The notes beneath the pieces are model-generated. The model ran no database searches, was not told the DNA's origin, and was given only the letters and a program-made list of their open reading frames with translations. A DNA stretch of 64,000 bases from Podospora anserina. Lineage: Eukaryota. The first letter of the stretch is position 1. Every line of letters begins with the position of its first letter. Position numbers and translations under genes: made by a program. Shown piece by piece: positions 5,645 through 30,088 of this stretch. The stretch spans positions 3,782,001 to 3,846,000 of the forward strand of contig CM030336.1 in the NCBI GenBank assembly GCA_017654855.1, written 5' to 3'.

Positions 5645-7514
5645 CGCGGTGTTTTGATCCTCCTCCACTGGGCGTGCCCCCTACAAGCTGCACAAAAACC
5701 CCCTTTGTGTGTGGTGGTCGGTTGGGTTTAAAGATGAAGTAGCTCAAAGGCGTATGCGTATGGTGGTGTATCGGTATCGGTATCGGTATAAAGATGGACA
5801 AGTTCAAGGTAACATATAACTAAATATAAAAACCAGCTGGTGATTGGCTCCTTTTTTTGCTTTGCACCGGTTTGGGATGCGGAGGCGTTGGTTGGTCCAA
5901 GCGTCTCCTCCGTTGGTTGTTGTGTCGCGGGTGGAGTTTGCTGCGTCTGAATGCCTTCACCCGCCGAGGGCGCTGCAAAAGAGACAGCGGTCGGCGACAA
6001 AATGGGCGGTGTCCGGGCTGTTTAGGGGGATGCAGCGGTCAAAAGCGTATGGATCAATTCGGAAAAGACGCGGGAATCGAAATACGATGGTTGCGCGATG
6101 CAGGCACACCAGGCGTCAATGAAACTGATGGGAGTCGATTCTTTTGTGGTGGTTGTTGACTGCAAAAAGTGTGGAAAAAGAGAGTGAGAAAAGGAGGAAA
6201 TTTTGGGGTGCTGGGCGGCGAGGAGCAGGACGGGGATGGGCTCTGTTTTGGAACTTTTTTTTTTATTACTTTGCAGCTGGCGAGGGAAAACCGGGGCTTG
6301 ACCACCAAAGGGACATTTGTTCTGGAAAAAAACGAATTAAACACCATTAACAAGAACACTCAGACCAGGTTGCCAGTCCAGCCAGTGATGGAGCCAAGCG
6401 ACGGCCAAAAGAGGGAAACGCAGTCATCAGATACATCAGACGGTTTGCCGATATCAGATTAGGTGATGGGAATGCCTCTCTGGCAGCTGGCCACCGCCTG
6501 ACCAACCACTCATAGAGGGAGTAGGGTGACCGGAGGGGGAAATGCCTTGGTTGCTCTGGCTGGGAAATGGAAGACGATAAAATAATATCAATGCTCTCTG
6601 TCGTCACAAGGCCTGGCTGTTAGAGGTCCCCCACCGGCGGGAAGTGACTTTAAAGTGTGACAGGGGAGAGGGGGGGTTCGTCGCAGAGCCAAGAGCGCGG
6701 AAGAGGCTCGCGCGGGGCGGCTTGGGTCCTGCGGTATCCTGCAGTGCCCTGCACACGGTACGGTAGGTACGAGGGTACTTCTGGATCTTGTACCCCGCCC
6801 CCCTTTCGCATTCGGGGTGGGACGATGCGTGACATTCTCCGCAGTGTCCGACCCACAATTGAGGGACAAAATAAACGTGCCGGGACAGGCACAGGGCATC
6901 CCTGATTGAAGCACAAGCCACATCCAATTCCACCAAGTCCCAATTCTCCGATCTATTACAACAAGCCGGTCGGTGTCTGTATACAAGTCAGAAGATGCTT
7001 GGGACGCAGTGAGAGAATGGAGAAGAAATTATACTCCAGATATACACCTAGTTAGACGTGGTAGACTTCTGCAGCGATATATCCGTCCCTGTGCCTTCCG
7101 ATCCCGAGACATGGCGTGTCTTGTATTCGTGCACTAACGATGCAATTTTCCGCTGCTTCACGTGCTGTGGCGCCGGTCTGCTACAGCAAACCGCTCCACT
7201 CTGTGCGAGTCTCTTCTCTCAGTTTCTCAGAAAAATAGCCAAAAGTATCGTTTTCTACACCTGCGAAACACTGGCCTGCATCTGAACGAGTGTTTCGAAT
7301 GCCGTGCACAGACCAGACCCGGTGCCATTCGGCCTTAGATCGACGCTAGCAGTGACGGGTAATTAGATAAGCAGCCACCCCTGTCCAGCTTCCAAAAGCT
7401 TCGTTAAAGTGGGGGGCCAATAACGATAACGATAACGGATAACTTGCTGGTGACGGAACCTTTTCTACCAACACAAAGTAACTTCTTCACCAACGCTCGC
7501 CCATTCGACCATCA

Positions 7515-7515
<1 letters not shown>

Positions 7516-7548
<33 letters not shown>
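7516..7548. repeat. (CA)n microsatellite in the RBA50 5' region
   Basis: Seen directly. Confidence 0.95.
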
Positions 7549-7553
<5 letters not shown>

Positions 7554-7568
7554 AACCCCCCCGACAAA

Positions 7569-8867
7569 ATGGAGGGATTCGGACTAGAGGTACGAGACGT
7601 TCTCGAACACACACCCGACGAAGTCAAGCCCCCGAGCTTCCCGACTCCCGCCAACCAGTCCGCGACCGGATTCCCAGCGCCCAAGAAACGAATTTCTGCC
7701 TTCAAGAAGCAGCGCCAGAACAACAACACAAGCATGCTCCCGACTCCTCCAGCCCAATATGGCCCAGAGCGGCCACCAGCACCAAAGCCAGAGGTGTTAG
7801 AAAAGCAGAGAATCGCCGAGGAAAATGACGCCCTTTTGAACTCGTTGCCGCCCGATCAGATCATGGAAGAACAGCGCGACCTTTTCAAGAACCTTGATCC
7901 AAAGCTTATCCAAATGCTCCTCCGGCGCGCAAACCTCGACGATTCCGGTCCCGCGAAATTCGATCCGTCCCCAGAACCCTCTTCGAGCGCGAAAACAACA
8001 CCCGTAACAACCACGACCAAACCCCCCAAAGTCACTGTCGAGGACGTCTCAGAAAACATACCACCACCACCATCCAAGAAAGATCCCACAAAACCCAAGA
8101 AAACAGTCACCTTTGACGAAGACGCCGCTCCCCCAGCTCCCCCAGCCAACCTCATCCCCGTCAAAACGATCACCACCACCGACCCAAACCTCATCATAAC
8201 CCCCTCCAACGCCCCCGACGAAGCCCACACATTCCACACCCACTACCCCCAGCCCCCCACTGTCCCCGACCTCGACCCCGAAGACCCGGACTTTCTCGAG
8301 AAAATGCACTCCAAATTCTTCCCCAACCTCCCCGCCGACCCCTCCAAGCTCGCCTGGATGGCCCCCATCCCAACCCCGGGCTCCGCCGCCGACAAAGAAT
8401 CCCCTTACTACCCAGGCCAGGACTCACTCCCCATCTCTGCGCTGCGCTTTGACTTTCGCGGTTTACTCATCCCACCGAGATTATCCCGGCAAATCCCTGT
8501 AACGAAGGGTCTTCACCACCATGGTGAGGCGCCCGAGGCGGCGGGGTATACTATTCCCGAGTTGGCGAGATATGCGAGATCGGAGGTCCCAGCGCAGAGG
8601 TGTATTGCTTATCAGACGCTGGGCAGGATGCTGTACAGGTTGGGAAGGGGTGATTGGGGGAAGGGTGAGGGTGGGAGGGTAGGGGAGGAGGACGATTTGG
8701 CGTTTGGGTTGTGGAGGTGTTTCAAGGAGAATCGGGTGGTGGAGAGTATTGAAGAGGAGGTGCAGGGGGAGGAGGGGAGGGGGCACAGGAGTTGTTATGC
8801 TTATGCGACGGAGGCGTTGTGGCTGTTTGAGAAGGGGGGTTGGAGAGAGAGGTGGAGGGGGATGTGA
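7569..8867 (+). CDS. RBA50: RNA polymerase II assembly factor Rba50 (RPAP1 family)
   Basis: RPAP1 motifs IAEENDALL, KLAWM, RFDFRG, GLHHHGEAPEAAGYTIPEL...SEVPAQRCIAYQTLGRML; intact 432-aa ORF. Confidence 0.92.
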   Translation: MEGFGLEVRDVLEHTPDEVKPPSFPTPANQSATGFPAPKKRISAFKKQRQNNNTSMLPTPPAQYGPERPPAPKPEVLEKQRIAEENDALLNSLPPDQIMEEQRDLFKNLDPKLIQMLLRRANLDDSGPAKFDPSPEPSSSAKTTPVTTTTKPPKVTVEDVSENIPPPPSKKDPTKPKKTVTFDEDAAPPAPPANLIPVKTITTTDPNLIITPSNAPDEAHTFHTHYPQPPTVPDLDPEDPDFLEKMHSKFFPNLPADPSKLAWMAPIPTPGSAADKESPYYPGQDSLPISALRFDFRGLLIPPRLSRQIPVTKGLHHHGEAPEAAGYTIPELARYARSEVPAQRCIAYQTLGRMLYRLGRGDWGKGEGGRVGEEDDLAFGLWRCFKENRVVESIEEEVQGEEGRGHRSCYAYATEALWLFEKGGWRERWRGM

Positions 8868-9214
8868 ATGGGGTGAAGAGCAGAGGCTGATCATTGGGCC
8901 AAAAAAGAATAGCATTAACAAGCGAAACCGGTACGTCAAACGAGGTTACGGAGCTGCATGTGAAGACAATCGAGCGCTGGACTGTGACAAATGGCATGTG
9001 ACTTGTTGAACATGCGAAAAGATGGAGAAAAGCATGGCCTAGCAGCTATGCCCGGCAGCTGACATACTTTGGGTGTGAACTTTGCCTCGAGTTCAACTGT
9101 CCAGTTTCTTGTCTTCCGGCCCCAGCAAAACGGGTGATATTCAACTAAATATATCCAGACCACCTATTCAGTAAGAGCACCAACCGTGGTGATCACGACA
9201 TTGTTAGGTGGAGG

Positions 9215-9330
<116 letters not shown>

Positions 9331-9530
9331 GGTAATTACGAATTGAAAGGTGAAAAGTAGTAGTAAGAAAAGGGATGACGATGATGATGACAAGATTCAG
9401 AACCGTCACATGGGAGTGATTTATAGGTAGCTTCCTGTCAATAGGCACGCACGCGGTGTCTTCACCACCACCAAACAACCGCACTTGTTCCCATCCAGCA
9501 TCAAATACACCGAGAACCACATCCACATCC

Positions 9531-9533
<3 letters not shown>

Positions 9534-9563
<30 letters not shown>
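9534..9563. repeat. (ATC)n microsatellite
   Basis: Seen directly. Confidence 0.9.
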
Positions 9564-9564
<1 letters not shown>

Positions 9565-9706
9565 ATACAAGACAAATCCCCAAAACAAAATTACCACATT
9601 GTATCATACAAGTTCCCTTCCCTTAACCCAACCCCCTATCATCAAACAATCTTTCAGTCATTAATTCCCATTTCTTTTCAATCCCCTACATCATACTCCC
9701 AGCCCA

Positions 9707-11554
9707 TCACTTCGACCCCCCATTAGCCAACCCAGCCCTCAACTCATCCACCTCCCTCTGCAACCTCGTCAAATCAGCCAGTATATCCACCCCGTCACCA
9801 CTACCACCACCCCCAGGTGAGGACACCACCACCTCATCCGTCGTGTCCGGTGTTGCCGCCGTCGCCATCGCCATAGCACTATTCCTAACACTACCACCAC
9901 CACCCCTATGCTTCGGCACCGGCGGCGCCTGCTTGCTATTCCCACTACTCCTCCTCACCACCCCCTCCCCCGCTGCCCCGACAGGTTTCTTAGCCCTCAC
10001 ACTCGCCCCCCTAGCCGGAGGCGGCGGCGGCGGCGTCAACTTCTCCTTTGCCGTCCCTACCACCGGTGGAGGGCTGGCAATAGCTTCCACCACCGATCCC
10101 GCCAGCGGCGGTGTGACCACACTGTTATTATTCGGCGTACTACTCCCAGACAGTGTCGGCGGCGGAGATACAGCCTCACCACTGGGCGACGCCACCACCC
10201 TCTGCGATGGTCTCCTCGGGGGCGGCGGTGCCGGCGCGTGGATGTTGGCTCGTAAGGAAGAAGACCGGGAACGGGTCGATTCCATTGATGATCGACGAGT
10301 ACTGCTAAACAATTCCTCCTCTGGTGAAAAAGGCCTAGGCTCGGACCTGCCATGATGTGGTTGTCGTCTCGGCGGGGGGGCAGGTTTTCTTGACGGTGGT
10401 GGTGTCGGCAGACTAGAGGTTGGGGAGGGGGAGCGTAAAGCGTGGATGATGTGAAGACCTGGGTCGGGCATGGCAGGCTCGGGAATCTTCCCCGCTGCTT
10501 CGTGGTCGAATATATTGCCATCTTCTGACACCGAGGGTTGTGAAGGGAGGGGTTTGTTAACGTCTGACGGGGTTGGGGGCCGCTGTCGAGATGGTGACGT
10601 GACAGGTTTAGGGCTTGCTAGTGATGATGAAGACGAGGTTTTGCCGCCTAGGGAGCTGCTGCTCTCCTGGCGGGTCGGGTCTGGTCGGATGAGTTTTCCA
10701 TGGCGGGAGCTCGGGGGAGGGGGTTTCTTTCTCAGGATGGTCGGTGCAGGTTGGAGGGTGGCGGCGGGAGGGTTGGGGAGTAACCTCTGCTGCTCATCTC
10801 CAACCGTCTGGCCTGGTATTTCCCGTGATAGACGTGGCGTGTCCTGCAACTGTATCGTTATCTCCGTCCCAGCTCTTTCCTCCGCCCTCCCGAGATCAGC
10901 ACTCGACCGTGCCGGTGTTGATCCCCCGGTCTGTCCAGTCAACAACAGCCTCCTGAACGCATCCACATCCAGCCCTCCCCTCGACCCTCCTGCCCCCACC
11001 TCAGTTTCCCCCCTCTCCTCCAACCCTGGTTGTCCCATCTGAAAAGATATCCTCGGCACCCCTCCCTCCCGCCGCCTATCCCCCTCTTGCACCGCCAACT
11101 CCTCAACCGAGCTCTTATTCGACCCCCCACCCGCCCCAAAAGGATCTACCTCCACCACCACCACCTCCTCCTCCTCCTCCTCCTCACTACTCTCACTACC
11201 ACTATCACTCTCCTCATCCGGCTCCCCAATCGGCGGGAACCTCTCCCCAAACCCATCACTCTCCTCCGGACTACTCGGCGGCGGGCTCTGCACCCTCACC
11301 TTCTTGACAACCTTTTGCTTCAGAAAACTCGTCGTCGGCGGCGGCTGAGCCGGTCTCGGTACACCCTGCAATGTTTCCCAGAATTGATCACCGCCGCCGC
11401 CCCCAATCGTCAAACTCGAGGTATTATCATCCCCCTGTATCGTCGGCGGTGGTGGTGGAGGAGGGGTCGTCGACTGCAGATCCGGGACGTCGGTAGCGGC
11501 AACGGGCTTGCGACGAAACGGGTTATTGGAATTGAACGATGGCTGGGTGGCCAT
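9707..11554 (-). CDS. Pro/Ser-rich, largely disordered hypothetical protein (615 aa)
   Basis: Long ATG-initiated ORF; N-terminal SNNPFRR, internal LDVDAFRRLLLTG, several PPPPxR motifs, C-terminal helix DILADLTRLQREVDELRA. Confidence 0.8.
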   Translation of the reverse strand: MATQPSFNSNNPFRRKPVAATDVPDLQSTTPPPPPPPTIQGDDNTSSLTIGGGGGDQFWETLQGVPRPAQPPPTTSFLKQKVVKKVRVQSPPPSSPEESDGFGERFPPIGEPDEESDSGSESSEEEEEEEVVVVEVDPFGAGGGSNKSSVEELAVQEGDRRREGGVPRISFQMGQPGLEERGETEVGAGGSRGGLDVDAFRRLLLTGQTGGSTPARSSADLGRAEERAGTEITIQLQDTPRLSREIPGQTVGDEQQRLLPNPPAATLQPAPTILRKKPPPPSSRHGKLIRPDPTRQESSSSLGGKTSSSSSLASPKPVTSPSRQRPPTPSDVNKPLPSQPSVSEDGNIFDHEAAGKIPEPAMPDPGLHIIHALRSPSPTSSLPTPPPSRKPAPPPRRQPHHGRSEPRPFSPEEELFSSTRRSSMESTRSRSSSLRANIHAPAPPPPRRPSQRVVASPSGEAVSPPPTLSGSSTPNNNSVVTPPLAGSVVEAIASPPPVVGTAKEKLTPPPPPPARGASVRAKKPVGAAGEGVVRRSSGNSKQAPPVPKHRGGGGSVRNSAMAMATAATPDTTDEVVVSSPGGGGSGDGVDILADLTRLQREVDELRAGLANGGSK

Positions 11555-13523
11555 TGTGTCTTTGACTTGTAGCAGAAAGGTAGGTCAAGAATATAAAAAT
11601 ATAAACAAGCTGTAGATTTGAGAGGCGCGCGGCTGGCGCAACAGCTGCAATCACGCAACAAGATAATAGGTCGGTTGAACAGCCCGGGCGTGTGCCTTGG
11701 TAGTAAGGCTTGGTAAAAAAGAGCCACTTAGGTAAGGTACGGTGGTGGTGGTGGCATCGCTGATGGGTGCCTGATTAGAACCGAGCCGGCCGCCGCTGAC
11801 TTCCAATAACTTGGACAGTGACGCGGGCTGTCGGATGCGGTCGGGATTAGCGGGGGGTAGGTTTGTTGACGTTGGGTGCTTGTCCGTCTCCAATGCACGT
11901 TTCCACAACAGCTTGGGTGATGAAAAATGTAGATAGCTATCTAGGTGGTAGGTAGTGTGTCAAAGGATTAGACAGCAAACAGAAGCTCCCTCCCCAGAGC
12001 TGAGCTGTGCTGTGCTTCCTGGGCCACGCCAACAGTCGATCAGGCACAGCAACAGCACCTGAACCAGATGACGGCAGAATCCCTTTCCGGAACACACACA
12101 CCCACGTTTCGATAAGGAACCTTCCGATAAGACTGGCAGTGTACCCCGTTAGCTAGCTCCGAACGGCAAGACCCACTTGAGAACATGCAGGACATGCTTG
12201 TCTGGGCACGGACCAGCATGAATCGGCGTGTAAGTGCCACAACTGGTGAAGCCTCAGATTTCTCGTTGGCCCACTTTGATTGACACCTGTGCCGTGGTTG
12301 GGTATACATATGAGACAGACACATGTGTATTTTGATAGATGTATACGGACCGCTGAAGAATACATCTTGATCACAATCATTAATCCCAATTTTATCGCGA
12401 GATTTCTGTCAAGAAGAATGAGCTAGCTGGCTGATCACATTTCCCCATCTCAAGCGGTGAACAAAACCTCCCCCCGCAACAACGCCCCCAATAATCCCGC
12501 ACTTTCTTCTTGCTCTTACCTTTCCAAATCTAGATTTACCATCTCAGCAAGTTACAAATGGTAGTCAACCCTCCAACTCAAAACACATCCCCAAAAACAA
12601 CAAAAAAAAAACAAGGAGTGGCCGGTGAGGAACCACACCCCTGACCCCGACCCCTGACCCCTGGGCGGCAGAAAAATGAGAATGGGGTCAAACCGAAAAT
12701 GTAAACAACCCCCGGTCGACGCGCCACCTACGCGTCGAGGAGCCCCTCCCCCCACTTGTTGGACCCCTTCTTTCTCTCCTCTCTGTATCCCTCCAGATCA
12801 AAACCACCATTCACTCATTCACTCAAAACTAAAGTGAGACCTCTCCAAAGATTTTGTCAGAAAGTAATTCAATTGGCATGTATAATTACAACTCATCAGG
12901 CCCCAAAAACCCCCCAGCCGAGATTTTAAGCCCACCTACCCACCCTACCTCCAACAAAAATCCTCTAACGCCTCCCTGCCCCAAAAGTCTACCCTCTTTT
13001 GCGCGCGCGCTTCCCGGTTCCAAAGTCCTTTTCCGAATCATGTGTGTTTGTAGTGATGTCGCGGTACGAATGATGGTTGGGTATCGATAGCAGAGAAAAA
13101 CCAAATGCATCTTGAATGATTCCAACAAAGGCTGCTCGCAAGTGATGATGATCGTCGTCCGACCCCTTCCTGTCTTCATGGTTGAAAATGTTTGTTGTAT
13201 ATGCAAGTTGTGGGAAGAAGGGGGGGGGGTATAGTAGAGCCAATAACCTTCGTCAACAAAAAGCATGTTTTTCCCACACGTTCTTCCCCCGTAATAAAAA
13301 AAATGTGATACAGGCCCTCCGAAACCAATAAAAACCCGCGCGCGCGCAAAAATGGTGCCTCGAAAAAGCGGCCGCTTATCCCAATGATAACCCCCAAGAT
13401 GATAGCCCCAGTGATAATCCTGAACGCCAAACTAAAAAAATAAAAAAAATAAAAAAAGCAGAGCCGTCATATCAAACAAGTATAAAAAAAACCATCATGA
13501 CAAGAAAGACTGACCCTCGGCTT

Positions 13524-14718
13524 CTACGCCGAGGCAGCTTCCGCCTTGTCGGCCTTCTTTGGTGTCTTCTCCTTCTTGGGGGCAGCGGCCTTCTTGGGAG
13601 CAGCCTTCTTGGGCGCGGCCTTGGCGGCGGGGGCAGCCTTGGTGACGCGACCGGACTTGGTCTTGGTCAGGACAGCAGGCTTCTCCTCAGCAGGGGCTTG
13701 GGCAGCCTGGATAGACAATGTCAGCGGGTATTCATGAAAAAGTCACGTGGGTGTGTCATAGGATGCTCACCTTCTTGGGGGCAGCCTTCTTCTCCTTCTT
13801 CTCCTTGGGCGCGGCAGCCTTCTTAGGGGCAGCGGCCTTCTTCTCCTTCTTCTCCTTGGGAGCGGCCTCCTTCTTCTCCTTCTTCTCCTTGGGAGCGGCA
13901 GCCTTCTTGGTGGCAGCCTTCTTCTCCTTGGGAGCAGCCTCCTTCTTCTCCTTGGGCGCGGCGGCCTTCTTAGGGGCAGCAGGCTTCTTCTCCTTGGGAG
14001 CGGCAGTCTTCTTGGCGAGCTTGGTGCCGCCGGAGGGGCCCTTGGGCTGCTCGAAGATGCCCTTGTCGACACCAGACTTCAAGGCCTTGTTGAAGAGGGA
14101 GTCGAACATGTTGTCAGAGGCATTGATGGTGTTGTTGCTCTTGACATACTTCTTGAGGGATTGACGGCTGGCGGCTGAGTCAGTCCGAGGCGTTCATGTG
14201 ATGTGTGAATGAGATAATTGTGAGGTGAGAGTGGGCGGGTGAGCCAAAAAAACTGTGGTGGGCGGTCGCATTTGCGACACGCGCATCGTTGTGGATGTTC
14301 TCGCTACGCGAGATGGGTGGATGGGAGAAGAAAAAAATGCAGAAATTTTCTTACCTGGAGCCATTGCGATCCTTGAGCTGCAATTCAAGAAAAAGCAGCG
14401 TCAGTAAATGTGATCATGAATGCAAAGTGGGCAAAATCCGAGCGTAGTGAGACGTGGGATCAAAGACATCATGAGCTTCCTTCATCCTCATCCCACTTGC
14501 GACCGGACGCGTCGGCATGAACCAACAGGGGCAGTGAAAATTACCTGAATGATGGCATCCGTGATCATGTCCTGAATAAAAGTTAGATACGACTGATTAA
14601 TCAAGAACATGTCCGATGTATAGACTTTTCATACCTGGTAGGAGGGGTGGACGGGGGCGGCCTTTGCCTTGGGGGCAGCGGCGCCCTCAGTCTTGGTCTC
14701 GGTCTTCTTGGGAGGCAT
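13524..14718 (-). CDS. HHO1: Linker histone H1; exons 14718-14635, 14571-14545, 14377-14355, 14167-13771, 13706-13524
   Basis: Spliced product MPPKK...HPSYQ|DMITDAIIQ|LKDRNGSS|RQSLKKYV...KGPSGGTKLAKK (H15 globular domain) plus K/A/P-rich tail; four GT-AG introns. Confidence 0.95.
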
Positions 14719-17361
14719 GGTGATGGTTTGAAGTGGTGTTTGTTTGTTTGGTGTAGATGACAATACAGATGCTAGATGCTGTTCGAAGCGGAAATGGACG
14801 AGTCGGACAGAGAGGGTGAAGAACGGCTTGCAAGTTCGGGGTGGACGAGAGAAACCAGGGACAGGAGGGTGGGCGGGCTGTCGCGCTCGGGGGGGATGAT
14901 CGGGTGTTTATATATGGAAGCGGGGGTCTCGCCCACCCCCGAGTGATTGTGCTGATTGTGCCCTGGAGCTGCCCAAATTCCCGGGGCAAAAGCTCGCAGC
15001 TTTGGTGCAAGGTATGGCCCGTGCCCCCCACTAGAAGCATGCCTAGAGCTCCCAGGCATATGGCAGACACGCCCGTTCCCAGCATCCATGTCACCCTGTC
15101 TTGCTCCGAAAAAGCCCAGATCATGTGGGGACCTTACACTCTGTGAGGTGGCATCATATGGCTGCATCACCAAAGTGCATGAGGTGTGAGGTGTGAGTGA
15201 GAGACGGGAGCGAGTAAGTGAGTGCAGCCCAACGTGCGTGGCTACCTAGGTCCCTTGGTGAGGTGATGCCATCTCTGTTTTACGCACACCCTTTCGTCAC
15301 TCAACCCCAACCCGACGGCATGGCCTGGATGGATGGATGCCCAATCATTGTCTTACTCAACCATTCACTGCTGAAGAACTTCTACTTCTTGTGGATGATG
15401 GAGGCAAGGGACGAGGCACAAGGTGCATGGCGGGGAAGGCCAGTCATACAGTTATCTATCTACTACTACGTACACTACCCAACAACCATGAGCATGGGAG
15501 GGGTGGCTGTCACCCATCATTCACCACGGGGTCATCCGAACGGGGAAGCCTTCTCGATCTGCCGCTAAGCTGAATTGGAACCCTGGACTGTTCGTCATCG
15601 TCATCGTCAAGATCACATAAGGAACCCTGGATCATGTCAGTGCTAAAAAGGGAAAAAAAAACAGGTGACATGCCGCTGCCAGACAGGCGGGGTGAAGGGG
15701 GGAGGGAGAAGAAAAAAAGGATGCAGAATGCCAGATGGATCATGGAAGGGAGGGAGAGAGAGGGGGCGGCAGGCGTGCCGGGATTCTTGGGGTCCTCCTT
15801 CGATCACTTGCCGCTCCCCGTTATTTTGGCGCTTTCCCTCTTTGGGCGGGCATTTAAATCGGAAACAAACAAAAAACTCGCAGCGTGCCTATTTTCTGAT
15901 TGGCCCGTTCAACGACACCGGATCCACCTTGTACCTCGAGTTGTCAATCATGCGCACCCCGCCTGTCGAAAGAGCATCTCTGATCTTGAGCTCGCCCCGA
16001 CTCCCCCTTCCCTCGGTTTGATTCGAGTTCCCACGCTTCTTCCCTTTTCTCGACCCGGGTCCGCAGCACATGGTTGGAATCACCCGACTCTGCTCTTCTT
16101 TGTGTGCTTTTTATTTCATTTTTTGCGCCCGGGGACCGCGGGGCATTGTTCCAAATACCGATGACCATTTCCGAGACGAGAGTTGGCATTCAAGCATCTG
16201 TTTTCGGACGCGATTTGGCTTCACGCGCCTTGGTCGGTCCAAACCATCGCCCTCTGGCGCATTCAACACAGCACCTCACCAACCCCTGCTTTGTCGTAGA
16301 AGAATACATCAGTTCGATCGGGCAATTGATGCCGTTTCTTCCATGTGCTTGTTTTTCGCACTGCACCGTTGTTGCCTGAGATATCTGCACTTGAAGCGAA
16401 AGTCACTCCTGATGGTGGGGCGGCTCGGGAGCTGCTCGTGAAGCTTTGGTTGAAGCTATCCGCATCTCAACCCTTCCACACTTTTGCCTCTTCCCACAGC
16501 CCACCACATTGCTTTTCGCTCTTCAAACATTGATAGATCACTCCGAGGGGCTCTTGTTTTTGTTTTTGTCACTTTTTTGGTTTGCTCCTGGTCAATTGAG
16601 GCCAATTCAGGCACCATTTCCAACGCCAGCAAGGTGATGTCGTGTCGATCTGCACGTTTGGCCAGCTCATTCACCCTTCGATTGGTCCACCACAACAGCT
16701 TTCTTTTCCTCGATATGAAACGGTAATTATCTTTTCTGCGTGCCAGGTTCACTCCTGCGCAAGTGTTCTCCGAGGGGAGTTGTTTTTTCAGCATTGCTGT
16801 GTGTCACTTTGATGCTGCCGCGTCACGCGGTCAACGTGGGTTTGGCATCAGGCGAGCCGCCCGGTTTCTTGATGTTCCTGGATTCATGTCAGCCACACAT
16901 ATGCATGGACAGCAGATGATGGTGTTGACGAATGGTGTGCGATAAATGGTGAAGAGAGATCATTTTGAGCGAGTACTGTGATGATTCAGGAGGCTGGTGT
17001 TCACGTTCCTGTTCAGAGCGACTTCGATGGTCGGGCGTCATCTCACGAGTCGACCTGACCAACCGCCACGATTACGTCGACACTTATCCTGCCGCCCACG
17101 TTTCGGTCGGGGTAACTGAGAAGAGTCATCATCAAGGGTGCAAATTTCAAAAGAAGTCAAAGGTGGACATTTGGTGTCTCGTGGATCTTGTCAACTGAAA
17201 TATGCCCAACTAGTTGAAGTCTGATTAGTCGGTAGTCTAGTGACCACATCTGTAAACTAGGTTCAAACTAGAGATAGTCCATTCGTACAACATAGAGATA
17301 GCTCAGAGCTTCAGACATTAGCCAATACATACCATCCATGTGATTTTCAACTTCTATGTCC

Positions 17362-19179
17362 TTAGGTGGTGTTCACAATAACCTGCGCCGGAAACACCAC
17401 CACCTCCTCCTCCCCTTCCCCTCTCAAATCCCCCTTCTGCACCACCAAAGGAAACAAAACAACCCTCACCACAGCCCCCTCGAGATCCCCCTCCGTGTCC
17501 CCCCGACCACCCGGTTGCGTCATCAACGACGAGATAAAATTCACCGTCGCCGCCAGCTCCCCATTCTCATTGTACTCGGGCATCAACGGCGGCAACACCA
17601 TAAACTCAGCCACCTGCGTCCTCATCTCAATCGACAGATTCACCGCCTCACTCACCACCCTCCTCAGCTGCACCCTCAACTGCTCTTCCAAATTCCCCGG
17701 CGGCGGCAACACCTTCGACAGCGCCTCCAAAATCGCCTCTGCCACCGCAACGGCATCCCTATCCCTCTGTTTTCTGAACGATTCCCTCCTCGACCAGAGC
17801 CCCAGCGTGGTAGCCCTCCAAGCACGAACCGTCGCCGTCGGCCCAATGTCCGTTAGCTGTTTTTCTAATGACTTGAGCTTGAACCTCTGCTCCCGGTCCA
17901 TGCCGAAGAGGTAACGGGTGAAAATGAATTCCCAGATCATTGACATGGTGACAGAAGTGAACATGTCCCGGCGTTTCACCCTGTCACGGAGGTAGTTATC
18001 GGCGTCGGAGCCGTCGAGGACAGAGTTATCTAGCCGGTCGATGATGTTTTCATCGTTGATTTCCGAGGTGAGGCGGCTGGCGCGCATGTCGGAGAATTTG
18101 GAGAAGCGGAGGACCCATTGGGTGACGGTCGTGAAGAGGTGCTGGCAGCGCTGTCCAAAGTATTCGGTGGTGTGGATTGTTCCGAGCTGGGTTGGTTGGG
18201 CTTTGAGGATATCTAGGCTTGTTGGCAAGCTTTGGGAGGTCGTGGGTTGGGTGGCAGCCTCTTCGGGAGTGTCGGTAGTAGGTTTGGGTGCAGGTTGAAC
18301 AACCTCGGATGCTGTGGATGGCATCGGCGAGACTGCTGTAGGGTCACCCATCCGGTCACCGGATGGCTCGGATGTAGACACGAGAAACGATCGTGATTGG
18401 GTTTTTGAGTCGAAGCTGATGTTTTCCAGAGCCATGATCGATTGCGGACTTTTCGTGCTAGTCCTGTTGGTGACGACCTCCTTCGCCAAAGCCATCATTC
18501 GTCGGTAGGCTCTCGAGTTGACAACAGTGTTATCAAATTCGAACTCGACGCCCTCGGCCACAGTGTTTCCATCCCCACGGAAGATTGTGTCGGCAGTCCT
18601 CCGCGGATTCAGAACAGACTCGGCAATTTGAAGCTGAGGATTCGCCAACCGCAAGGACGCCGCCTTGGTCGCTTGCCTGTCTAGCAAACCTTTCCCGTTT
18701 CTGACGCCCTCGAGAATCTCATCGGTAGTATTCATGTGCAACACTTGAACCAGAAACGCAATCGCGGACTGCTGTCCTTGCAATAGCGATAGATACCCTT
18801 TCATCTCCCCCTCATTTCGCACAATCCGCGCTTTAGTCCACCACGTCCGCACAAGCGAGCGACGGGACTCCATCAGTGCGGTGGCATCGCAGAGTTTTTC
18901 GAGGGAGTCCTCGAAGCAGGTCAGTACGACTAGGCAACCGGTGAGGGTTGTGTCGAGGGTGTGGACGACATCGGCCTGGCCGCGGACGGTGTGGTTTTGC
19001 AGGATGAGGGTCTGGAGCTGGGACAGGCCGGTCTTGATGGCGGCGCATTGGGAGGAGAGGGCGGTGATGGTGACTTGAGCGTTTTGGAATTTGGTGTGGA
19101 GGGTGTCGAGGGCGCGGGCTGCTTGGAGGCAGATGCCTGTGATGCCTGCGATCGAGGCTGTTATCGAGAGGGGGTCCAT
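17362..19179 (-). CDS. 605-aa protein with a fungal HeLo-like N-terminal domain, a low-complexity linker and a C-terminal domain resembling the Leashin/Lah C-terminus
   Basis: N-terminus MDPLSITASIAGITGICLQ...; FEFDNTVVNSRAYRR motif; C-terminal QWVLRFSKFSD...WEFIFTRYLFGMDREQR...VVLFPLVVQKG...PAQVIV; single intact exon. The Lah similarity is from memory and needs a search. Confidence 0.8.
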   Translation of the reverse strand: MDPLSITASIAGITGICLQAARALDTLHTKFQNAQVTITALSSQCAAIKTGLSQLQTLILQNHTVRGQADVVHTLDTTLTGCLVVLTCFEDSLEKLCDATALMESRRSLVRTWWTKARIVRNEGEMKGYLSLLQGQQSAIAFLVQVLHMNTTDEILEGVRNGKGLLDRQATKAASLRLANPQLQIAESVLNPRRTADTIFRGDGNTVAEGVEFEFDNTVVNSRAYRRMMALAKEVVTNRTSTKSPQSIMALENISFDSKTQSRSFLVSTSEPSGDRMGDPTAVSPMPSTASEVVQPAPKPTTDTPEEAATQPTTSQSLPTSLDILKAQPTQLGTIHTTEYFGQRCQHLFTTVTQWVLRFSKFSDMRASRLTSEINDENIIDRLDNSVLDGSDADNYLRDRVKRRDMFTSVTMSMIWEFIFTRYLFGMDREQRFKLKSLEKQLTDIGPTATVRAWRATTLGLWSRRESFRKQRDRDAVAVAEAILEALSKVLPPPGNLEEQLRVQLRRVVSEAVNLSIEMRTQVAEFMVLPPLMPEYNENGELAATVNFISSLMTQPGGRGDTEGDLEGAVVRVVLFPLVVQKGDLRGEGEEEVVVFPAQVIVNTT

Positions 19180-19797
19180 TGATGGTGCCTAGTCACCCAC
19201 AATGGGCCGCGCCGGTTGATGCCGAAAAAATACGGCACGTTAATACCATCTCTCAAGACAAGTTTTTGAGTCTTCGTGATCATCAGGAATCGTATCCAGC
19301 TGGGGGCGCATAAGGCATCTTTCGAGGCTATGCTGCAGGATTGATTCTTGGCGGCACATAACTGGTCGATGGACTTGTTCGGAAGAAGTGAGGAAATACC
19401 ACTCGATAGGGGATCTACACCTAGAGTTTGAACTTTGAATTCAACAGTGGCTTCAGCTGTCAAGTCGGGATGATGGACACGACTGATCTTTTTGCTGAAC
19501 CACTTTGAACAGCCGCTAAAATAGGTACCTTAGTCGAGCAAATAACGTAGACCATGAGTTGCTACCAGGTAGCATGACACTGGCATATCACGAACTCTCT
19601 TCGAAACCAAATCGCAGTTCGCATGAGGATGTCACATCCTACATTATTCACACTCCCTCAGATTCAAACTCACAAGTGACACCAACATAATGTCATCAAA
19701 TAATCAAACAACATGTCTCACGACAGTGAAACACAGAAGAGCAAGGAGCAACGTCACTGCAGCACAGTATATGTATTAGGTCCCTTTTACTCCTTCC

Positions 19798-23712: not shown

Positions 23713-24665
23713 TCACCACCTCCCAACCCCATTGACCCCCACCTGCTCCAACCCCCGCCCCGTAACAACCTCCCTCATGACCCTAACAGCCCTCGCACTC
23801 TTCCCCCTCCTCCCCCCCCTCTCCCTACCCCCCACAAACTCATTAAACCACTCCTCCTCCCTCCCCTCCAACGGCAAACTAACCAACTCCCTCCCCCTCC
23901 CCCCCACACTCTCCCCCCCCTCGATCACACTCCCCACCAACCTCTCAAACAACCCCCTCCTCGCATTCTCCGGCCACATCCTAGTAAAATACAATGCCTC
24001 CGTCACGCTCGTCCTCGCCAACGCCCCAAACAACAACTCCAAACTCTCGCCCGTCTTGAGCACCGGCTGGACAGTGTTATAATACGCCAACGGCAACGAG
24101 TAATCATCCTCCGTCTTCTTGGCGTGCTTGACCAGGACTGTTATAATATCATCGGCAAACTCGCTTGGCAAGGAAGGATGGCAGAGGTATTCCAGCGCAA
24201 ACTTGAATTCTGACCTGTCCATATGCCACAGCCCCCGCATGAGGATCTGGTAGTTGGATGGGAGCCCCGACTCGTCGGCGAGGGAAAGGGCTAGGTTGGA
24301 GGTGCGGGGGCCGCGTTTTTCGTCAAAGTCGAGGAGGAGGTAGAAGAGGACTGAGAGGCGGGCGTGGGGGGAGATGCCGGGGGAGGAGGTGATGATTTGG
24401 TTGTGGAGGGAGCGGAGGGCGGAGGAAGAGTGAGGAGGGTAGACTTTTGATGCTGGAACAAGGATGTTAGTATCTTGGGGAGGGGGGAAGGGGAGGGGAA
24501 CAAACCATCTTTGATACCTAGGCGGTGGAGGACTCGATCGATGAAGAGGACGCCGTCGAAGGATTTGCGAAAGGTTTCGATTTGGCGGGAAAAGGTTGGG
24601 TCGTAGGGGGATGGGCCGTCAGTTGGGAAGGCGGCGTTGAAGTGGGTGAAGTCGAGCATGTTCAT
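23713..24665 (-). CDS. ELYS-like nuclear pore assembly protein; exons 24665-24506, 24452-23713
   Basis: LFIDRVL|..YPP...LFYLLLDF...[19 protein letters not shown]; intron 24505-24453 (GTTTGT...CTAAC...CAG) joins two ORF-track fragments. Confidence 0.8.
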
Positions 24666-24927: not shown

Positions 24928-25254
24928 TCGACCAGTCAATCGTGGCTGGTGTCTAGTGGCTAGTGGTTTTTGGCGGGGGCAGACGTGGCTTGTGATTTGT
25001 TTACAATCAATCAATGTCAACAGACGACAACTGGGGAAAGCGGGGCCTGAGCTCTGGGATTTGTCGCAGCGACTTTTGGACTGAAACGACTCGACAAAAA
25101 CTCGACGACGACCACCAGCGCGTTTTGTGGTTTTGTTGCGTGGGAGATCTGCCAGGCCCTTTGTGTATCTTGCCTTTGCGCAGCGATCTGTTGCGCTGTT
25201 TGTTGTTGGTTTTCTTGATTTCTTTTGGACGTTTGTAGCACACACACCGCAAAT

Positions 25255-28200
25255 ATGTCGACGCGACAGTCCCGCCGGATTGCGACCCGGCGCAACACCA
25301 CCATTGTCGAGAGTTCAGAGGACGAGCTGGGCGACGGGTCCCCAAAAGTGAAGCAGGAAGAGGAGGAGGAGGAATACACACCGGCACCGGTCGAGAAGAA
25401 AAGACCAGGTCGGAGGAGGACCACCACTACCGAACTTGCACCAGCTGCACCCGCCGAGACACCAGTGAGGAAAACCAGAGGACGCCCAAAGAAGAGTCTT
25501 GCGCCTGCGGCCCCCCCCCCTTCCGCACCGCCTGTTATCGAGAGTACCGAGAATGTAGATCCCGACCAGTCGCTCGCCAGCGTAGCGGGTGCATCATCAG
25601 CTGTTGACGTCGACGATACCTCAGTTGGGCCCCCACCATCGACAGTGAAGAAGCCTGTCGCGGCAGCCGACGACACTGTTGGACCACCACCATCCACAGC
25701 AAAGAAGCCCGCTGGAAGACCACGAAAGAGTGTCGCGCCCCGTGCAAGCAAGACCCCCACGCCGGCGCCTGAATTGAACGCTCCCACCCAATCTCCAAAG
25801 CCATCTGTGTCGCCATCAGCACAGCTCCTACGCGATGCCCCCCCGCTTACCGATATCACTTCTGCGACCAATAATGCCACGCTGAGTTCACAACAAGACG
25901 ATACCGTGATTGCGCCCATCAAACCGATCAAGCCCATGGATACAGTGCTCGAGAAGCCAATGGATATCATGCTGAAGTCGCGCACAATGCAGATCCCCGT
26001 GATTCAAGATACCGGCCCAAAGCCGCGCATTGTCATCACTTATCTTGTGCTCACCAACTTCAAGAGTTATGCCGGCAAGCAGGAGGTCGGGCCTTTCCAT
26101 GCTTCATTCTCCTCGGTTGTCGGTCCCAACGGTTCGGGCAAGTCCAACGTCATCGACTCCCTGCTGTTCGTGTTTGGTTTCAGGGCAAGCAAGATGAGAC
26201 AAGGCAAGATCTCGGCCCTCATTCACAACTCGGCAAAGTACCCGAATCTGGAGTACTGCGAGGTCGCGGTGCACTTCCGTGAGGTGATGGACCTTCCTGG
26301 CGGAGGTCACGAAGTCATCCCAGACTCAGACCTGGTCATTTCCCGCAAGGCCTTCAGAAACAACTCCAGCGCCTACTACATCAACGGAAAGACCTCCAAC
26401 TTCACAACTGTCACAACATTGCTCCGGGACCGCGGGGTCGATCTCGACCACAAGCGTTTCTTGATTCTGCAGGGTGAAGTCGAGTCTATTGCGCAGATGA
26501 AGGCCAAGGCTGCCAACGAGCACGATGATGGTCTTCTCGAGTATCTTGAGGACATCATTGGCACATCCAAGTACAAGACACCTATTGAGGAATCAGCCGC
26601 CGAGGTCGAGACACTCAATGAAATCTGCTTGGAAAAGAGCGGTCGTGTTCAACACGTTGAGAAGGAGAAGCAGAGCCTCGAGGACAAGAAGAACAAGGCT
26701 TTGGCTTTCATTCGTGATGAAAATGAGCTTGCCATGAAGCAGTCCGCTTTGTACCAACTCTACATCAGCCAATGCGAGGATAACCTAGCTGTTACAGACG
26801 AAGCCATCAGTCAGATGCAGGAACAACTCAACGCCGAGCTCGAGAAGCACAACGGCAGCGAGCAGATCATCAAGCAGCTGGAGAAGGCTCACGCCAAGGG
26901 CAACAAGGAGTATGAGGCTCAAGAAAAGGAAACTCAGGCCCTGATCAAGGAGATGGCCAAGTTTGAGCAGGAGCGCGTCAAGTTCGAGGAGAAGCGGAAG
27001 TTCTTGGCCGATAAGCGTAAGAAGCTTGAGAAGACCATTGCCAACTCTGAGAACTCGGCAGAGCAGGCCGACCAGACCATTCAGGAATGCGCTGAGGATA
27101 TCGAGAGGCGTGCGGCTGAGATCGAGAACATCGAAAGGTGGATCAAGGAGGAGGAGGAAGAGCTGACCAAGATCCGCGACAGCCTCAAGGGCAAGACTCA
27201 GCACATGTCCGATCAGATTGCGGCGAAGCAAAAGTCGCTTGAGCCCTGGAAGGAGAAGATCAACCAGAAGCAATCTGCTATCGCCGTGGCGGAAAGTGAG
27301 TTGGCCATCTTGGAGGAAAAGGCCAAGGCTGGTGGTGTTGCGCTTGAGGAGATGGAGGCCAAGATCGTGGCCATTCAGGAACTTCAGGCGGCCAAGGCGG
27401 AAGAGTTCAAGGCGTGCCAGGCTGAGAAGGATGCGCTCAAGAAGGAGGGCAGAAGAGTGGTTGCTGAGCTGGAGGAGCTTGCTCAGGAAGAGCCAAAGTT
27501 CCGCGCTAAGCTGTCTAACCTGCGGCAAAAGGCGGACGAGGCTCGCTCAAGCTTTTCGGCTACCAAGACGCAAGGCAATGTCCTAACGGCGCTTATGCGC
27601 ATGAAGGAGTCTGGTCGCATTGACGGCTTCCACGGGCGGCTTGGCAACCTCGGTGCCATCGACAAGAAGTACGACGTTGCCATCTCGACGGCTTGCGGTC
27701 AGCTCGACAACTTTGTCACGGACACTGTCGAGGCTGGTCAGCAGTGCATCGAGCACTTGCGCAAGACCAACTTGGGTCGCGGCAACTTTATGTGCTTGGA
27801 CAAGCTGAGAGTCCGTGACTACTCACCCATCAAGACTCCCGAGGATGCGCCCCGTCTGTTTGACCTGGTTCAGCCCAAGGATGAGAAGTTCAGACCTGCT
27901 TTCTACCATGCGCTCCAAGATACATTGGTTGCGGAAGATCTTGCCCAGGCCAACCGCATCGCCTATGGCGTCAAGAGATGGCGTGTTGTCACTCTGGCCG
28001 GCGAGCTGATTGACAAATCTGGTACCATGTCTGGTGGTGGTACGACAGTCAAGAAGGGATTGATGTCGTCCAAGCTGGTGGCCGAGATCAGCAAGGAGCA
28101 GGTGGATAAGATGGAGGCTGATCGCGATGCCTTTGAGCAGAGATTCCAAGAGTTCCAAGATCATCAACGTGAGCTGGAGGCTCGTCTTCGTTCCCTCAAG

Positions 28201-30088
28201 GAGCAGATCCCACAGCTTGACACCAAGATGCAGAAGATCAACCTCGAGATTGAGAGTTCATCCAGGAACTTGGCGGATGCTCAGCGCAGAGTTAAGGAAC
28301 TCAGCAAGGAGCACCAGCCTTCCCAGACAGACGACAACCGGGTTGCCGTCTTGCGAAAGGAGATCGCCAAGCTTAACAAGGAGATTGAGAAGCTCCATGG
28401 CGAGACTTCTAGTGTCGAGGATGAGATTAAAGAGCTGCAGGACAAGATTATGGAGGTTGGTGGTGAGAAGCTCCGGCAACAGCGCACCAAGGTGGACAAC
28501 CTCAAGGAAGAGATTCGTTCCCAAAACGAGGAGGTCTCCAGCGCCGAGGTCCGCAAGGTCAAGGCTGAGAAGCAGAAGGTCAAGCTCGAGAAGGACCACG
28601 CCAAGGCTTCCAAGGAGCTCGAGGCTGCCAATCGGGACCTGGAGAGACTCGAGGAGGAGATTGAGAACCAGGGCACTAAGGCTGAGGATTACACCACCAG
28701 AGTCGAGGAGGCCAAGGAAGCTCTTGCTGCCAAGAAGGAGGAACTTTCCACACTCAAGGCCGAACTTGACAAGAAGGCCGCCGAGTTGAACGCCACCCGT
28801 GCCGTCGAAATCGAAATGCGCAACAAGCTCGAGGAGAACCAAAAGGTACTCAAGGAGACGCAAAGGCAGCTTGCCTACTGGGAGAATAAGCTATCCAAGC
28901 TCTCGCTTCAAAACATTGAGGATCTTGAGTCCGGCCGACCTTCCCAGCCTGTGGCCCCCCAGTCCCGGCCCAAGACGCCAGGTAACGAAGACGAGGAAGA
29001 GGATGCCGAAGGCGAACCCGAGCTCGACGCCGAGGGCGACTCCCCCATGGGCGATGCCACCGACTCAGACGACGAAGACCCTGCCGCCCAGCTCCAAGCC
29101 GAGGCGGAAGCCACCTTCCTCGGTTCCGGCCGCGGTCCTAATCCTGCCTCCAACCCACTGGAGCTCCCACGCTACACCCGCGATGAGCTCTCTGACATGT
29201 CAGAAAAGACGCTCAAGGGCGAAATTGCCGTTCTGGAGGAAAAGACCCAGAACGTCAATGTTGATCTTGGTGTCCTGGCTGAGTACAGGCGCAGAGTAGA
29301 AGAGCACGCCGCCCGCTCCCAGGACTTGGCTTCTGCCGTTGCTCAAAGGGATGCCGCCAAGAAGAGATGTGACGACCTCCGCCGACTGAGGCTGGAAGGC
29401 TTCATGGAGGGCTTCTCCACCATCTCGCTCCGTCTCAAGGAAATGTACCAGATGATCACCATGGGCGGCAACGCCGAGCTGGAGCTGGTCGACTCCCTCG
29501 ACCCCTTCTCGGAAGGTATCCTCTTCTCGGTCATGCCCCCCAAGAAATCATGGAAGAACATCTCCAACTTGTCTGGTGGTGAGAAGACGCTTTCTTCGCT
29601 TGCGTTGGTGTTTGCGCTGCATCATTACAAGCCTACGCCGCTGTATGTCATGGACGAGATTGATGCCGCGTTGGACTTCAGAAACGTGAGTTTTTCCTTC
29701 CTCTCCTCCCCTTCCGCAACAGTTTGTTCTAACAGTAATACAGGTCTCGATTGTGGCGAATTACATCAAGGAGCGCACAAAGAATGCTCAGTTTATTGTT
29801 ATCTCGCTGAGGAACAACATGTTTGAGCTTGCGGCGAGGCTGGTGGGTGTTTACAAGGTTAATCACATGACCAAGAGTGTTACTATTGAGAATAAGGAGT
29901 ATGTCAAGGGGCGGCAGCAGCTGCAACAGTCGTCGCAGCAGCCGGCGCAGTCCCAGAGGGGAGGGACGGAGCAGACGACGAGGGTGTTTGGGCCGGGGAT
30001 GGCGAGGAGGGAGGAGAGCGGGAAAGAGCCGGAGCGGTTGGGGAGCAGTAGTAGTGCGAGTAGTAACTTGACTCATCGGCCGAGGTAA
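25255..30088 (+). CDS. SMC4: Condensin ATPase Smc4; exons 25255-29685, 29744-30088
   Basis: Walker A GPNGSGKSN, hinge, LSGGEKT signature, Walker B/D-loop YVMDEIDAALDFRN|VSIVANYIKERTKNAQFIVISLRNNMFE; intron 29686-29743. Confidence 0.97.

Follow-up and report, generated by a model that had tools for sequence, protein, structure and literature searches.

A two-module protein of Podospora anserina, PODANS_5_8750, joining a HeLo-like N-terminal domain to the C-terminal domain of the Woronin-body tether Lah/Leashin

A stretch of 64,000 nucleotides from Podospora anserina (GenBank assembly GCA_017654855.1, contig CM030336.1, positions 3,782,001 to 3,846,000 of the forward strand; hereafter the window) encodes on its minus strand the protein PODANS_5_8750. 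Its gene is an intact ATG-to-stop open reading frame (ORF) of 605 codons plus the stop codon at window positions 17362..19179, which starts at the first ATG, three codons past an upstream stop (stop-to-stop frame 17362..19188). The translation is 100% identical to the deposited sequence P0002, which is PODANS_5_8750 of P. anserina S mat+ and carries the source label 'uncharacterized'. PODANS_5_8750 is a new architecture built from known domains: a HeLo-like N-terminal module, a disordered linker and a C-terminal domain, hereafter LahC, homologous to the septal-pore-targeting C-terminus of Lah/Leashin. Sequence comparison supports the view that this two-module protein arose when the 3' end of a leashin (lah) gene was captured. 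The reading favoured here, to which we give about an even chance, is that of a putative HeLo-like protein tethered at the septal pore and acting there on the membrane; both localisation and activity are what we infer from the sequence. The features of the gene are as follows.

17362..19179, minus strand: whole coding sequence of PODANS_5_8750, 605 codons plus stop, identical to P0002.
18727..19179, minus strand: Pfam PF17111 match, residues 1-151, beginning with a small-residue-rich hydrophobic helix (residues 3-29).
18640..19179, minus strand: predicted four-helix bundle plus a fifth helix (residues 163-179), residues 1-180, from the AlphaFold model.
18499..18549, minus strand: conserved motif EFEFDNxVVNS(K/R)AYRR, residues 211-227, in a poorly ordered stretch.
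18178..18465, minus strand: disordered linker rich in serine, threonine and proline (S/T/P), residues 239-334, from composition and AlphaFold confidence.
17374..18177, minus strand: LahC domain, residues 335-602, homologous to the septal-pore-targeting C-terminus of Lah/Leashin.
17920..17982, minus strand: helix of residues 400-420, homologous to the predicted transmembrane segment of Aspergillus fumigatus Lah, from alignment and model.

In a BLASTP comparison, residues 339-602 aligned with residues 5250-5515 of a 5556-residue 'involucrin repeat protein' of Aspergillus fischeri at 61% identity (E 2e-102), and the other BLASTP segments between the rest of PODANS_5_8750 and this Lah orthologue had E values of at least 0.96. 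An exhaustive HMMER search with the whole protein returned 760 proteins at E <= 1e-3, 275 of them at E <= 1e-30, and the matches listed lie at the extreme C-terminus of proteins of 4000-7700 residues, with 55-67% identity and E values near 1e-105. The same region searched alone (residues 335-605) gave 913 proteins of 332-1059 residues (the best 120 listed) and 108 of 1060-3025 residues, and the median tail beyond LahC in 354 stored LahC proteins is 43 residues. Ten of the giant proteins were looked up, including the 5556-residue protein of A. fischeri and one named 'Leashin [Exophiala dermatitidis]'. The first-pass annotation had proposed this C-terminal match, and the 61% identity to the A. 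fischeri Lah orthologue together with the match to a named Leashin bears it out.

AFUA_2G08060 of A. fumigatus, an 'involucrin repeat protein', is reported to be the Woronin-body tether (PMC8227032). Its last 288 residues (LahC288) are described as necessary and sufficient for septal targeting and as taking green fluorescent protein to the pore rim, the targeting being reported to need both the predicted membrane-spanning helix and the domain after it (PMC5345055), while Neurospora crassa LAH-2 is reported at the pore rim and the hyphal apex (PMC2690989). As residues 339-602 align with the last ~270 residues of Lah, the C-terminus of PODANS_5_8750 corresponds to the targeting region itself. 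Among 103 giant Lah C-termini, 147 alignment columns are conserved to 90% or more, and PODANS_5_8750 keeps 121 of them (82%).

The AlphaFold model of residues 330-605 alone, built from a 54-row alignment, has a predicted local distance difference test score (pLDDT) of 92.5 and a predicted template modelling score of 0.91, and shows eight helices followed by a small C-terminal beta-sheet. Foldseek gave no match to this model in the PDB at E <= 1e-3, and the best score of an exhaustive VIA-align search (Z 5.6) is below the usual background. The LahC fold is confidently modelled, as a predicted fold that is without a solved structural relative among those searched. The predicted LahC homodimer scored 0.11 against a mark of 0.32, which is uninformative either way. 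Of the Pfam-named Atlas clusters, those closest to residues 335-605 are GIL1_IRKI_C of plants (PF24994; 0.79) and MIEAP of animals (PF16026; 0.76). As neither reaches the trust level, a deep kinship between LahC and these families is a mere candidate. Two family labels were set aside: DUF641, matched by 23 of the 54 alignment members amid many matches to coiled-coil families, the LahC-only member matching no family; and PF26082, a precomputed label on Aspergillus niger group proteins, which was not reproduced.

The modelled fold bears on a published feature of Lah. In A. fumigatus Lah a transmembrane segment has been predicted, and the mutation V5303E/V5304E is reported to abolish targeting (PMC5345055). 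The equivalent residues 400-420 of PODANS_5_8750, which align with the segment FMSVVMTMVWEF of the A. fischeri orthologue, form the helix 71-91 of the LahC model. Their peak 19-residue hydropathy is 0.95, thus weakly hydrophobic, and the charged E417 and R422 are nearly invariant, as are W416 and F420-G426 around them. Burial of this helix in the core would account for the failure of targeting upon the change of two valines to glutamates no less well than a membrane span would. The fractionation of a short transmembrane construct, as reported in PMC5345055, speaks against the buried-helix interpretation. The model may call for a fresh test of the membrane topology that has been proposed for Lah, and the location of the published transmembrane helix inside a compact predicted LahC bears on Woronin-body anchoring.

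At the other end of the protein, residues 1-151 match Pfam PF17111 with 33.9 bits against a gathering score of 27.2 (E 2.6e-8), the match spanning profile positions 1-140 of 209. PF17111 is the sole Pfam family in the whole protein even at E <= 10, and at that threshold no NACHT, NB-ARC or repeat domain was found in PODANS_5_8750, which does not qualify as a fungal nucleotide-binding leucine-rich-repeat-type receptor (NLR) or STAND protein. The family is now named PigL_N in Pfam and was formerly Helo_like_N; PMC9815663 and a bioRxiv preprint equate it with the HeLo-like domain and place it among membrane-targeting domains that are relatives of the MLKL four-helix bundle. The source name of one protein found with residues 1-240 still reads 'Fungal N-terminal domain...', PF17111 is also present in 11 of the 54 members of alignment A3, and the Atlas clusters nearest to residues 1-240 carry PF17111 or SesA. 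The HeLo-like N-terminus proposed in the first-pass annotation, together with a profile scan to check it, is upheld by this match above the gathering score.

The full-length AlphaFold model (53-row alignment, mean pLDDT 70) predicts N-terminal helices at residues 3-29, 31-61, 69-105 and 109-161 with pLDDT 60-85. The first of them includes residues 3-21, where the Kyte-Doolittle 19-residue mean of 1.39 is the second highest in the protein. VIA-align matched residues 1 to ~160 to generic four-helix bundles alone (Z up to 17.1), MLKL and HET-s are absent from the 50 VIA-align rows shown for the full model, and Foldseek of the full model against the PDB gave no match at E <= 1e-3. The predicted fold is consistent with the HeLo-like family and is not by itself proof of kinship.

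With residues 1-240 as query, a word-based search picked out 17 of 2259 candidate proteins, none of them an orthologue from Neurospora or Sordaria. In their alignment F213, F215, D216, S222, Y225 and R226 are each at least 90% conserved and R227 is invariant; a PDB sequence search with the profile of these 17 sequences gave no match at E <= 10. Three relatives carry the N-terminal module with other C-termini, namely an 814-residue protein of Chaetomium strumarium, a 453-residue protein of Penicillium coprophilum and a protein with an MSP domain (P0357 has the MSP domain, P0354 and P0355 the other tails), and two of the three keep the FEFD...AYRR motif. Because such relatives are in the 17-sequence alignment, this motif belongs to the N-terminal module, which recurs with unrelated C-termini and is therefore a unit combined with different tails.

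The two modules are joined by residues 239-334, in which 16 serine, 15 threonine and 12 proline residues make up 43 of 96 positions (45%), in agreement with the S/T/P linker of the first-pass annotation. The pLDDT of the full-length model is below 50 over residues 239-316, and the linker is poorly conserved and varies in length among orthologues. All the strings quoted in that annotation were located in the translation: MDPLSITASIAGI at residues 1-13, FEFD...SRAYRR at 213-227, QWVLRFSKFSD from residue 354, TRYLFGMDREQR at residues 421-432 and LFPLVVQKG at residues 575-583.

The fusion occurs in the P. anserina complex, Triangularia setosa, Apiosordaria backusii, Apodospora peruviana, Lasiosphaeria miniovina, several Chaetomiaceae and environmental records. 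A further case is Thozetella sp. (Chaetosphaeriales), whose protein retains, like Lah, a short coiled-coil piece ahead of LahC. The survey across Sordariales suggested at first pass thus found the architecture widespread there, with Thozetella in addition. Triangularia setosa encodes both the fused gene and a canonical Lah of 7593 residues. In a careful IQ-TREE analysis of 71 LahC domains, the 12 fused copies form one clade (98/91), and its sister group (80/91) consists of the canonical Sordariales copies together with Sporothrix and a single NLR copy on a long branch. The sister position to canonical Sordariales Lah C-termini and the giant Lah coexisting in T. setosa support the gene chimera that had been proposed from the sequence.

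In the same tree, HET-ankyrin and tandem-LahC copies fall with Hypocreales Lah, and the A. niger group with Eurotiales Lah. A grouping of fused, HET-ankyrin, tandem and Hypocreales copies appeared in FastTree (349 domains) and in a quick IQ-TREE run; it is absent in the careful tree and was treated as long-branch attraction. A single clade of fused, HET-ankyrin and tandem copies is not rejected by the approximately unbiased (AU) test (delta lnL 18.5, p 0.107). Several independent captures of LahC are the best estimate from these sequences.

The captured domain has changed since. LahC has a median identity of 85.4% among 13 canonical copies from Sordariales and of 67.9% within the fused clade, in which just four conserved Lah columns have become fixed for a different residue (C349F, C368S, M408T and E555Q). 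Because fused LahC evolves faster than canonical LahC, its function may have shifted. The captured domain may by now serve another role or address, such as the hyphal apex (also marked by LAH-2, as reported in PMC2690989), lipid binding or self-association, and PODANS_5_8750 would then not be a septal-pore factor. Faster evolution and the clade-specific substitutions point in this direction; the retention of most highly conserved Lah columns and a fold that is confidently modelled from a mixed alignment argue against it, and we regard this alternative as rather improbable.

LahC behaves as an autonomous module and is in use outside Leashin. Eight Fusarium proteins contain HET, ankyrin repeats and then LahC (by Pfam on three and by LahC coordinates on all eight), one of them with a SesA match beyond LahC. 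A Xylariaceae protein, known from a single gene model, consists of kinase, NB-ARC, TPR and LahC, and a tandem LahC pair is present in two proteins (Trichoderma viride and one further record).

Proteins with LahC outside Leashin: P0155, P0156, P0158, P0163, P0182, P0197, P0210, P0213, P0218, P0003 and P0122.

These HET and NLR fusions keep alive a guard or integrated-decoy explanation, in which LahC is a bait resembling the end of Leashin that anchors it at the pore, and a competitor's toxin, a mycovirus protein or another non-self factor that binds or modifies it triggers cell death via the attached HeLo-like, HET or NLR module. In the eight Fusarium proteins LahC lies at the C-terminal sensor side, in the NLR-like protein it follows the TPR, and the best tree puts the captures in separate lineages. 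However, PODANS_5_8750 has no nucleotide-binding or repeat domain by Pfam, and it shows conservation instead of diversification. Only one gene model represents the NLR case, and independent origins are favoured but not proven, a single clade not being rejected by the AU test. A decoy role for PODANS_5_8750 is therefore judged improbable, slightly more so than a changed address of LahC.

Four runs from four studies, which are not on record as RNA, were read as transcript assemblies because of their intron-skipping joints, near-empty intergenic bins and more than 100-fold differences in depth between genes. The runs skip six CT..AC-ended intervals (minus-strand GT..AG introns) in neighbouring genes, five of them in all runs and one in X1 only. 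The cover of PODANS_5_8750 is as follows.

17508..19614, strand and ends not shown by the contigs: colinear contig cover (X1 17508-19607; X2 17511-19614).
17551-18622 and 18598-19585 (X6), and 17951-19249 (X10): further contig cover.

All four runs are without a joint inside the ORF, and the sole break of the contigs (17463-17507) falls in a C-rich low-complexity stretch. PODANS_5_8750 is transcribed and unspliced, and the single-exon intact ORF of the first-pass annotation stands, as far as the contigs show. In three studies the contigs stop at about 19585-19614, which hints weakly at a 5' end some 420 bases before the ATG.

Four other species of the P. anserina complex differ from PODANS_5_8750 at 10-14 of 605 residues, and full-length relatives in other genera share 64-77% identity. 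With these relatives and an identical deposited protein, the ORF did not arise as a frame by chance. An error of annotation or a pseudogene in decay would find some backing in the Chaetomium globosum and C. tenue models, which end inside LahC, and in gene calls that start at M126, but the intact frame, the contigs of spliced type in all four runs and the full-length orthologues in many genera make this explanation extremely improbable.

Several details of the gene models and runs are recorded here. The models P0351 and P0352 (C. tenue and C. globosum CHGG_09849) end in the middle of LahC, at about residue 495 of 499-511; either the annotation has overlooked an intron or a frameshift, or the proteins of these species are truly truncated. 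The gene calls P0382-P0384 and P0356, on long assembled contigs, begin at the internal M126 and lack the first two N-domain helices; these starts may be the choice of the gene caller only. Position 18350 is A in the window and C in all four runs, changing codon 277 from M to R, and residue 277 is R or K in all other members of the 90% cluster compared (other Podospora species and Logan assemblies). Since the runs and the cluster members disagree with M277, which falls in the disordered linker, it is a strain-specific change or a reference error. At position 18498 (between R227 and M228) one contig in each of the four runs departs into ~255 letters that are absent from the 64-kb window; the same runs also have contigs that cross this position colinearly, and the flanking bases are not a canonical splice acceptor. 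The departure may represent a second form of the transcript, or it may have arisen in the assembly graph through a word that another locus shares.

The neighbours of PODANS_5_8750 include an RPAP1-like protein (7482-8864, plus strand), the nuclear-pore assembly factor ELYS (23716-24618, minus strand; one 53-base intron confirmed at 24453-24505) and an SMC protein (25219-29823, plus strand). A very highly covered minus-strand gene at 13000-14830, with four short introns at 13706-13769, 14168-14354, 14378-14544 and 14571-14633, has a word depth of ~35-860, the highest of the stretch covered in all four runs, and its ORF pieces match no Pfam family. By Pfam, the ORFs within ~10 kb on either side of PODANS_5_8750 belong to RPAP1, ELYS, SMC or no family, with no NLR, HET or amyloid-motif gene among them, and a tblastn search of the window with both domains gave no further copy. 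In the literature searched, no paper was found that mentions Pa_5_8750 (supplementary transcriptome tables lay outside this search) or that joins 'HeLo-like' with 'septal', and 'LahC' in the septal-targeting sense was found only in PMC5345055.

The N-terminal part is 73-90% identical among Sordariales orthologues, more conserved than the LahC part of the same orthologues (63-72%); with the few differences within the P. anserina complex, this is consistent with purifying selection. This strong conservation, together with housekeeping neighbours and the lack of an amyloid motif, leaves considerable scope for a pore resident that does not kill. PODANS_5_8750 might then be a resident or regulator, brought to the pore by LahC, whose N-terminal module with its FEFD...AYRR motif is a docking scaffold that modulates Lah anchoring or Woronin-body position, or competes with Lah for the LahC receptor, and that would leave membranes intact. 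Low polymorphism in the species complex and the lack of an NLR partner fit this alternative, as does the same N-terminal module with unrelated C-termini in P0357, P0354 and P0355, which would suit a general adaptor. The HeLo-like profile match, a hydrophobic first helix typical of a membrane-targeting family and the recurrence of LahC with HET and NLR modules argue the other way. We consider a non-lethal resident unlikely overall, although the most probable of the alternatives weighed against the favoured reading.

In the favoured reading of a HeLo-like protein at the septal pore, LahC is probably still an address, if by a narrow balance, and would anchor PODANS_5_8750 at the pore rim beside Lah. 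That the tethered bundle acts on the pore-lining membrane, as HET-S, HELLP and MLKL do on the plasma membrane, is possible but doubtful. Upon wounding or a death signal, PODANS_5_8750 would help to seal or locally permeabilise the pore, thereby cutting off the compartment. HeLo and HELL domains are described as membrane-targeting death executioners, reliant on the N-terminal helix and relocating to the membrane once activated (sources including PMC9815663 and a bioRxiv preprint), and incompatible fusion cells, when dying, are reported to be isolated through septal-pore plugging. A membrane-acting bundle tethered at the pore would link these two processes.

Several observations weigh against this reading. 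One of the two targeting valines of Lah is a threonine in PODANS_5_8750 (SVTM against SVVM), the short tail beyond LahC in Lah is missing, and fused LahC evolves faster, as given above. PF17111 is broad and now named after a pigment-cluster protein, so that the match indicates family membership and not killing, while the N-domain model is of moderate confidence and its structural matches are generic four-helix bundles. The N-domain conservation, low polymorphism, lack of an amyloid motif and housekeeping neighbours are also unlike the HeLo/HELL executioners paired with NLRs.

Regulated cell death in filamentous fungi must stay confined, and PODANS_5_8750 is a concrete candidate for the coupling between death executioners and pore closure. 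It is conserved, and in the organism where HeLo biology is worked out it joins a HeLo-like domain with the only domain known to suffice for bringing a protein to the septal pore. A wider proposal, which we advance tentatively and consider unlikely at present, is that LahC is a portable septal-pore address captured several times by cell-death and non-self systems, giving pore-resident executioners or guards. If this is true, the HeLo-like (Sordariomycetidae), HET-ankyrin (Fusarium) and NLR (Xylariaceae) fusions would form an unrecognised class that seals or kills compartments or guards the Woronin-body tether.

Among known systems, Lah/Leashin (A. fumigatus AFUA_2G08060 and N. crassa LAH-2) is closest at the C-terminus, where residues 339-602 align end to end with its last ~270 residues at 55-67% identity, including the predicted transmembrane helix and the following domain, both reported to be needed for targeting (PMC5345055). 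However, PODANS_5_8750 has 605 residues against 4000-10000 and lacks the acidic repeats, the Woronin-body-binding N-terminus, the coiled coil before LahC and the tail. As it is short and without these parts, and a canonical Lah coexists with the fusion in T. setosa, it is a LahC-domain paralogue and not the tether.

HET-S, HELLP and HELLF (P. anserina and Chaetomium globosum) share with it an N-terminal helical bundle of the PF17111 type with a hydrophobic first helix, in the same organism. They are described as having a C-terminal amyloid (prion-forming) motif and an adjacent activating NLR gene, whereas PODANS_5_8750 has LahC at its C-terminus and housekeeping neighbours, and its killing activity is putative. 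MLKL, to whose four-helix bundle HeLo-like domains are reported to be homologous (sources including PMC9815663), resembles it in the predicted order of an N-terminal four-helix bundle, a linker and a C-terminal domain that would control where or when the bundle acts; PODANS_5_8750 lacks a pseudokinase domain, and MLKL is not among the structural matches shown.

The Fusarium HET-ankyrin-LahC proteins and the Xylariaceae kinase-NB-ARC-TPR-LahC protein likewise place LahC last, after domains from incompatibility or NLR systems. Their partner domains are different from that of PODANS_5_8750, and the best tree derives them from Hypocreales Lah and not from the Sordariales copy, a single origin not being rejected. 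Spa10 and other SPA proteins are alike in predicted pore residence and a long disordered segment. Spa10, which is reported to be required to retain LahC at mature septa in A. fumigatus (PMC5345055), is a candidate partner of PODANS_5_8750 rather than its relative.

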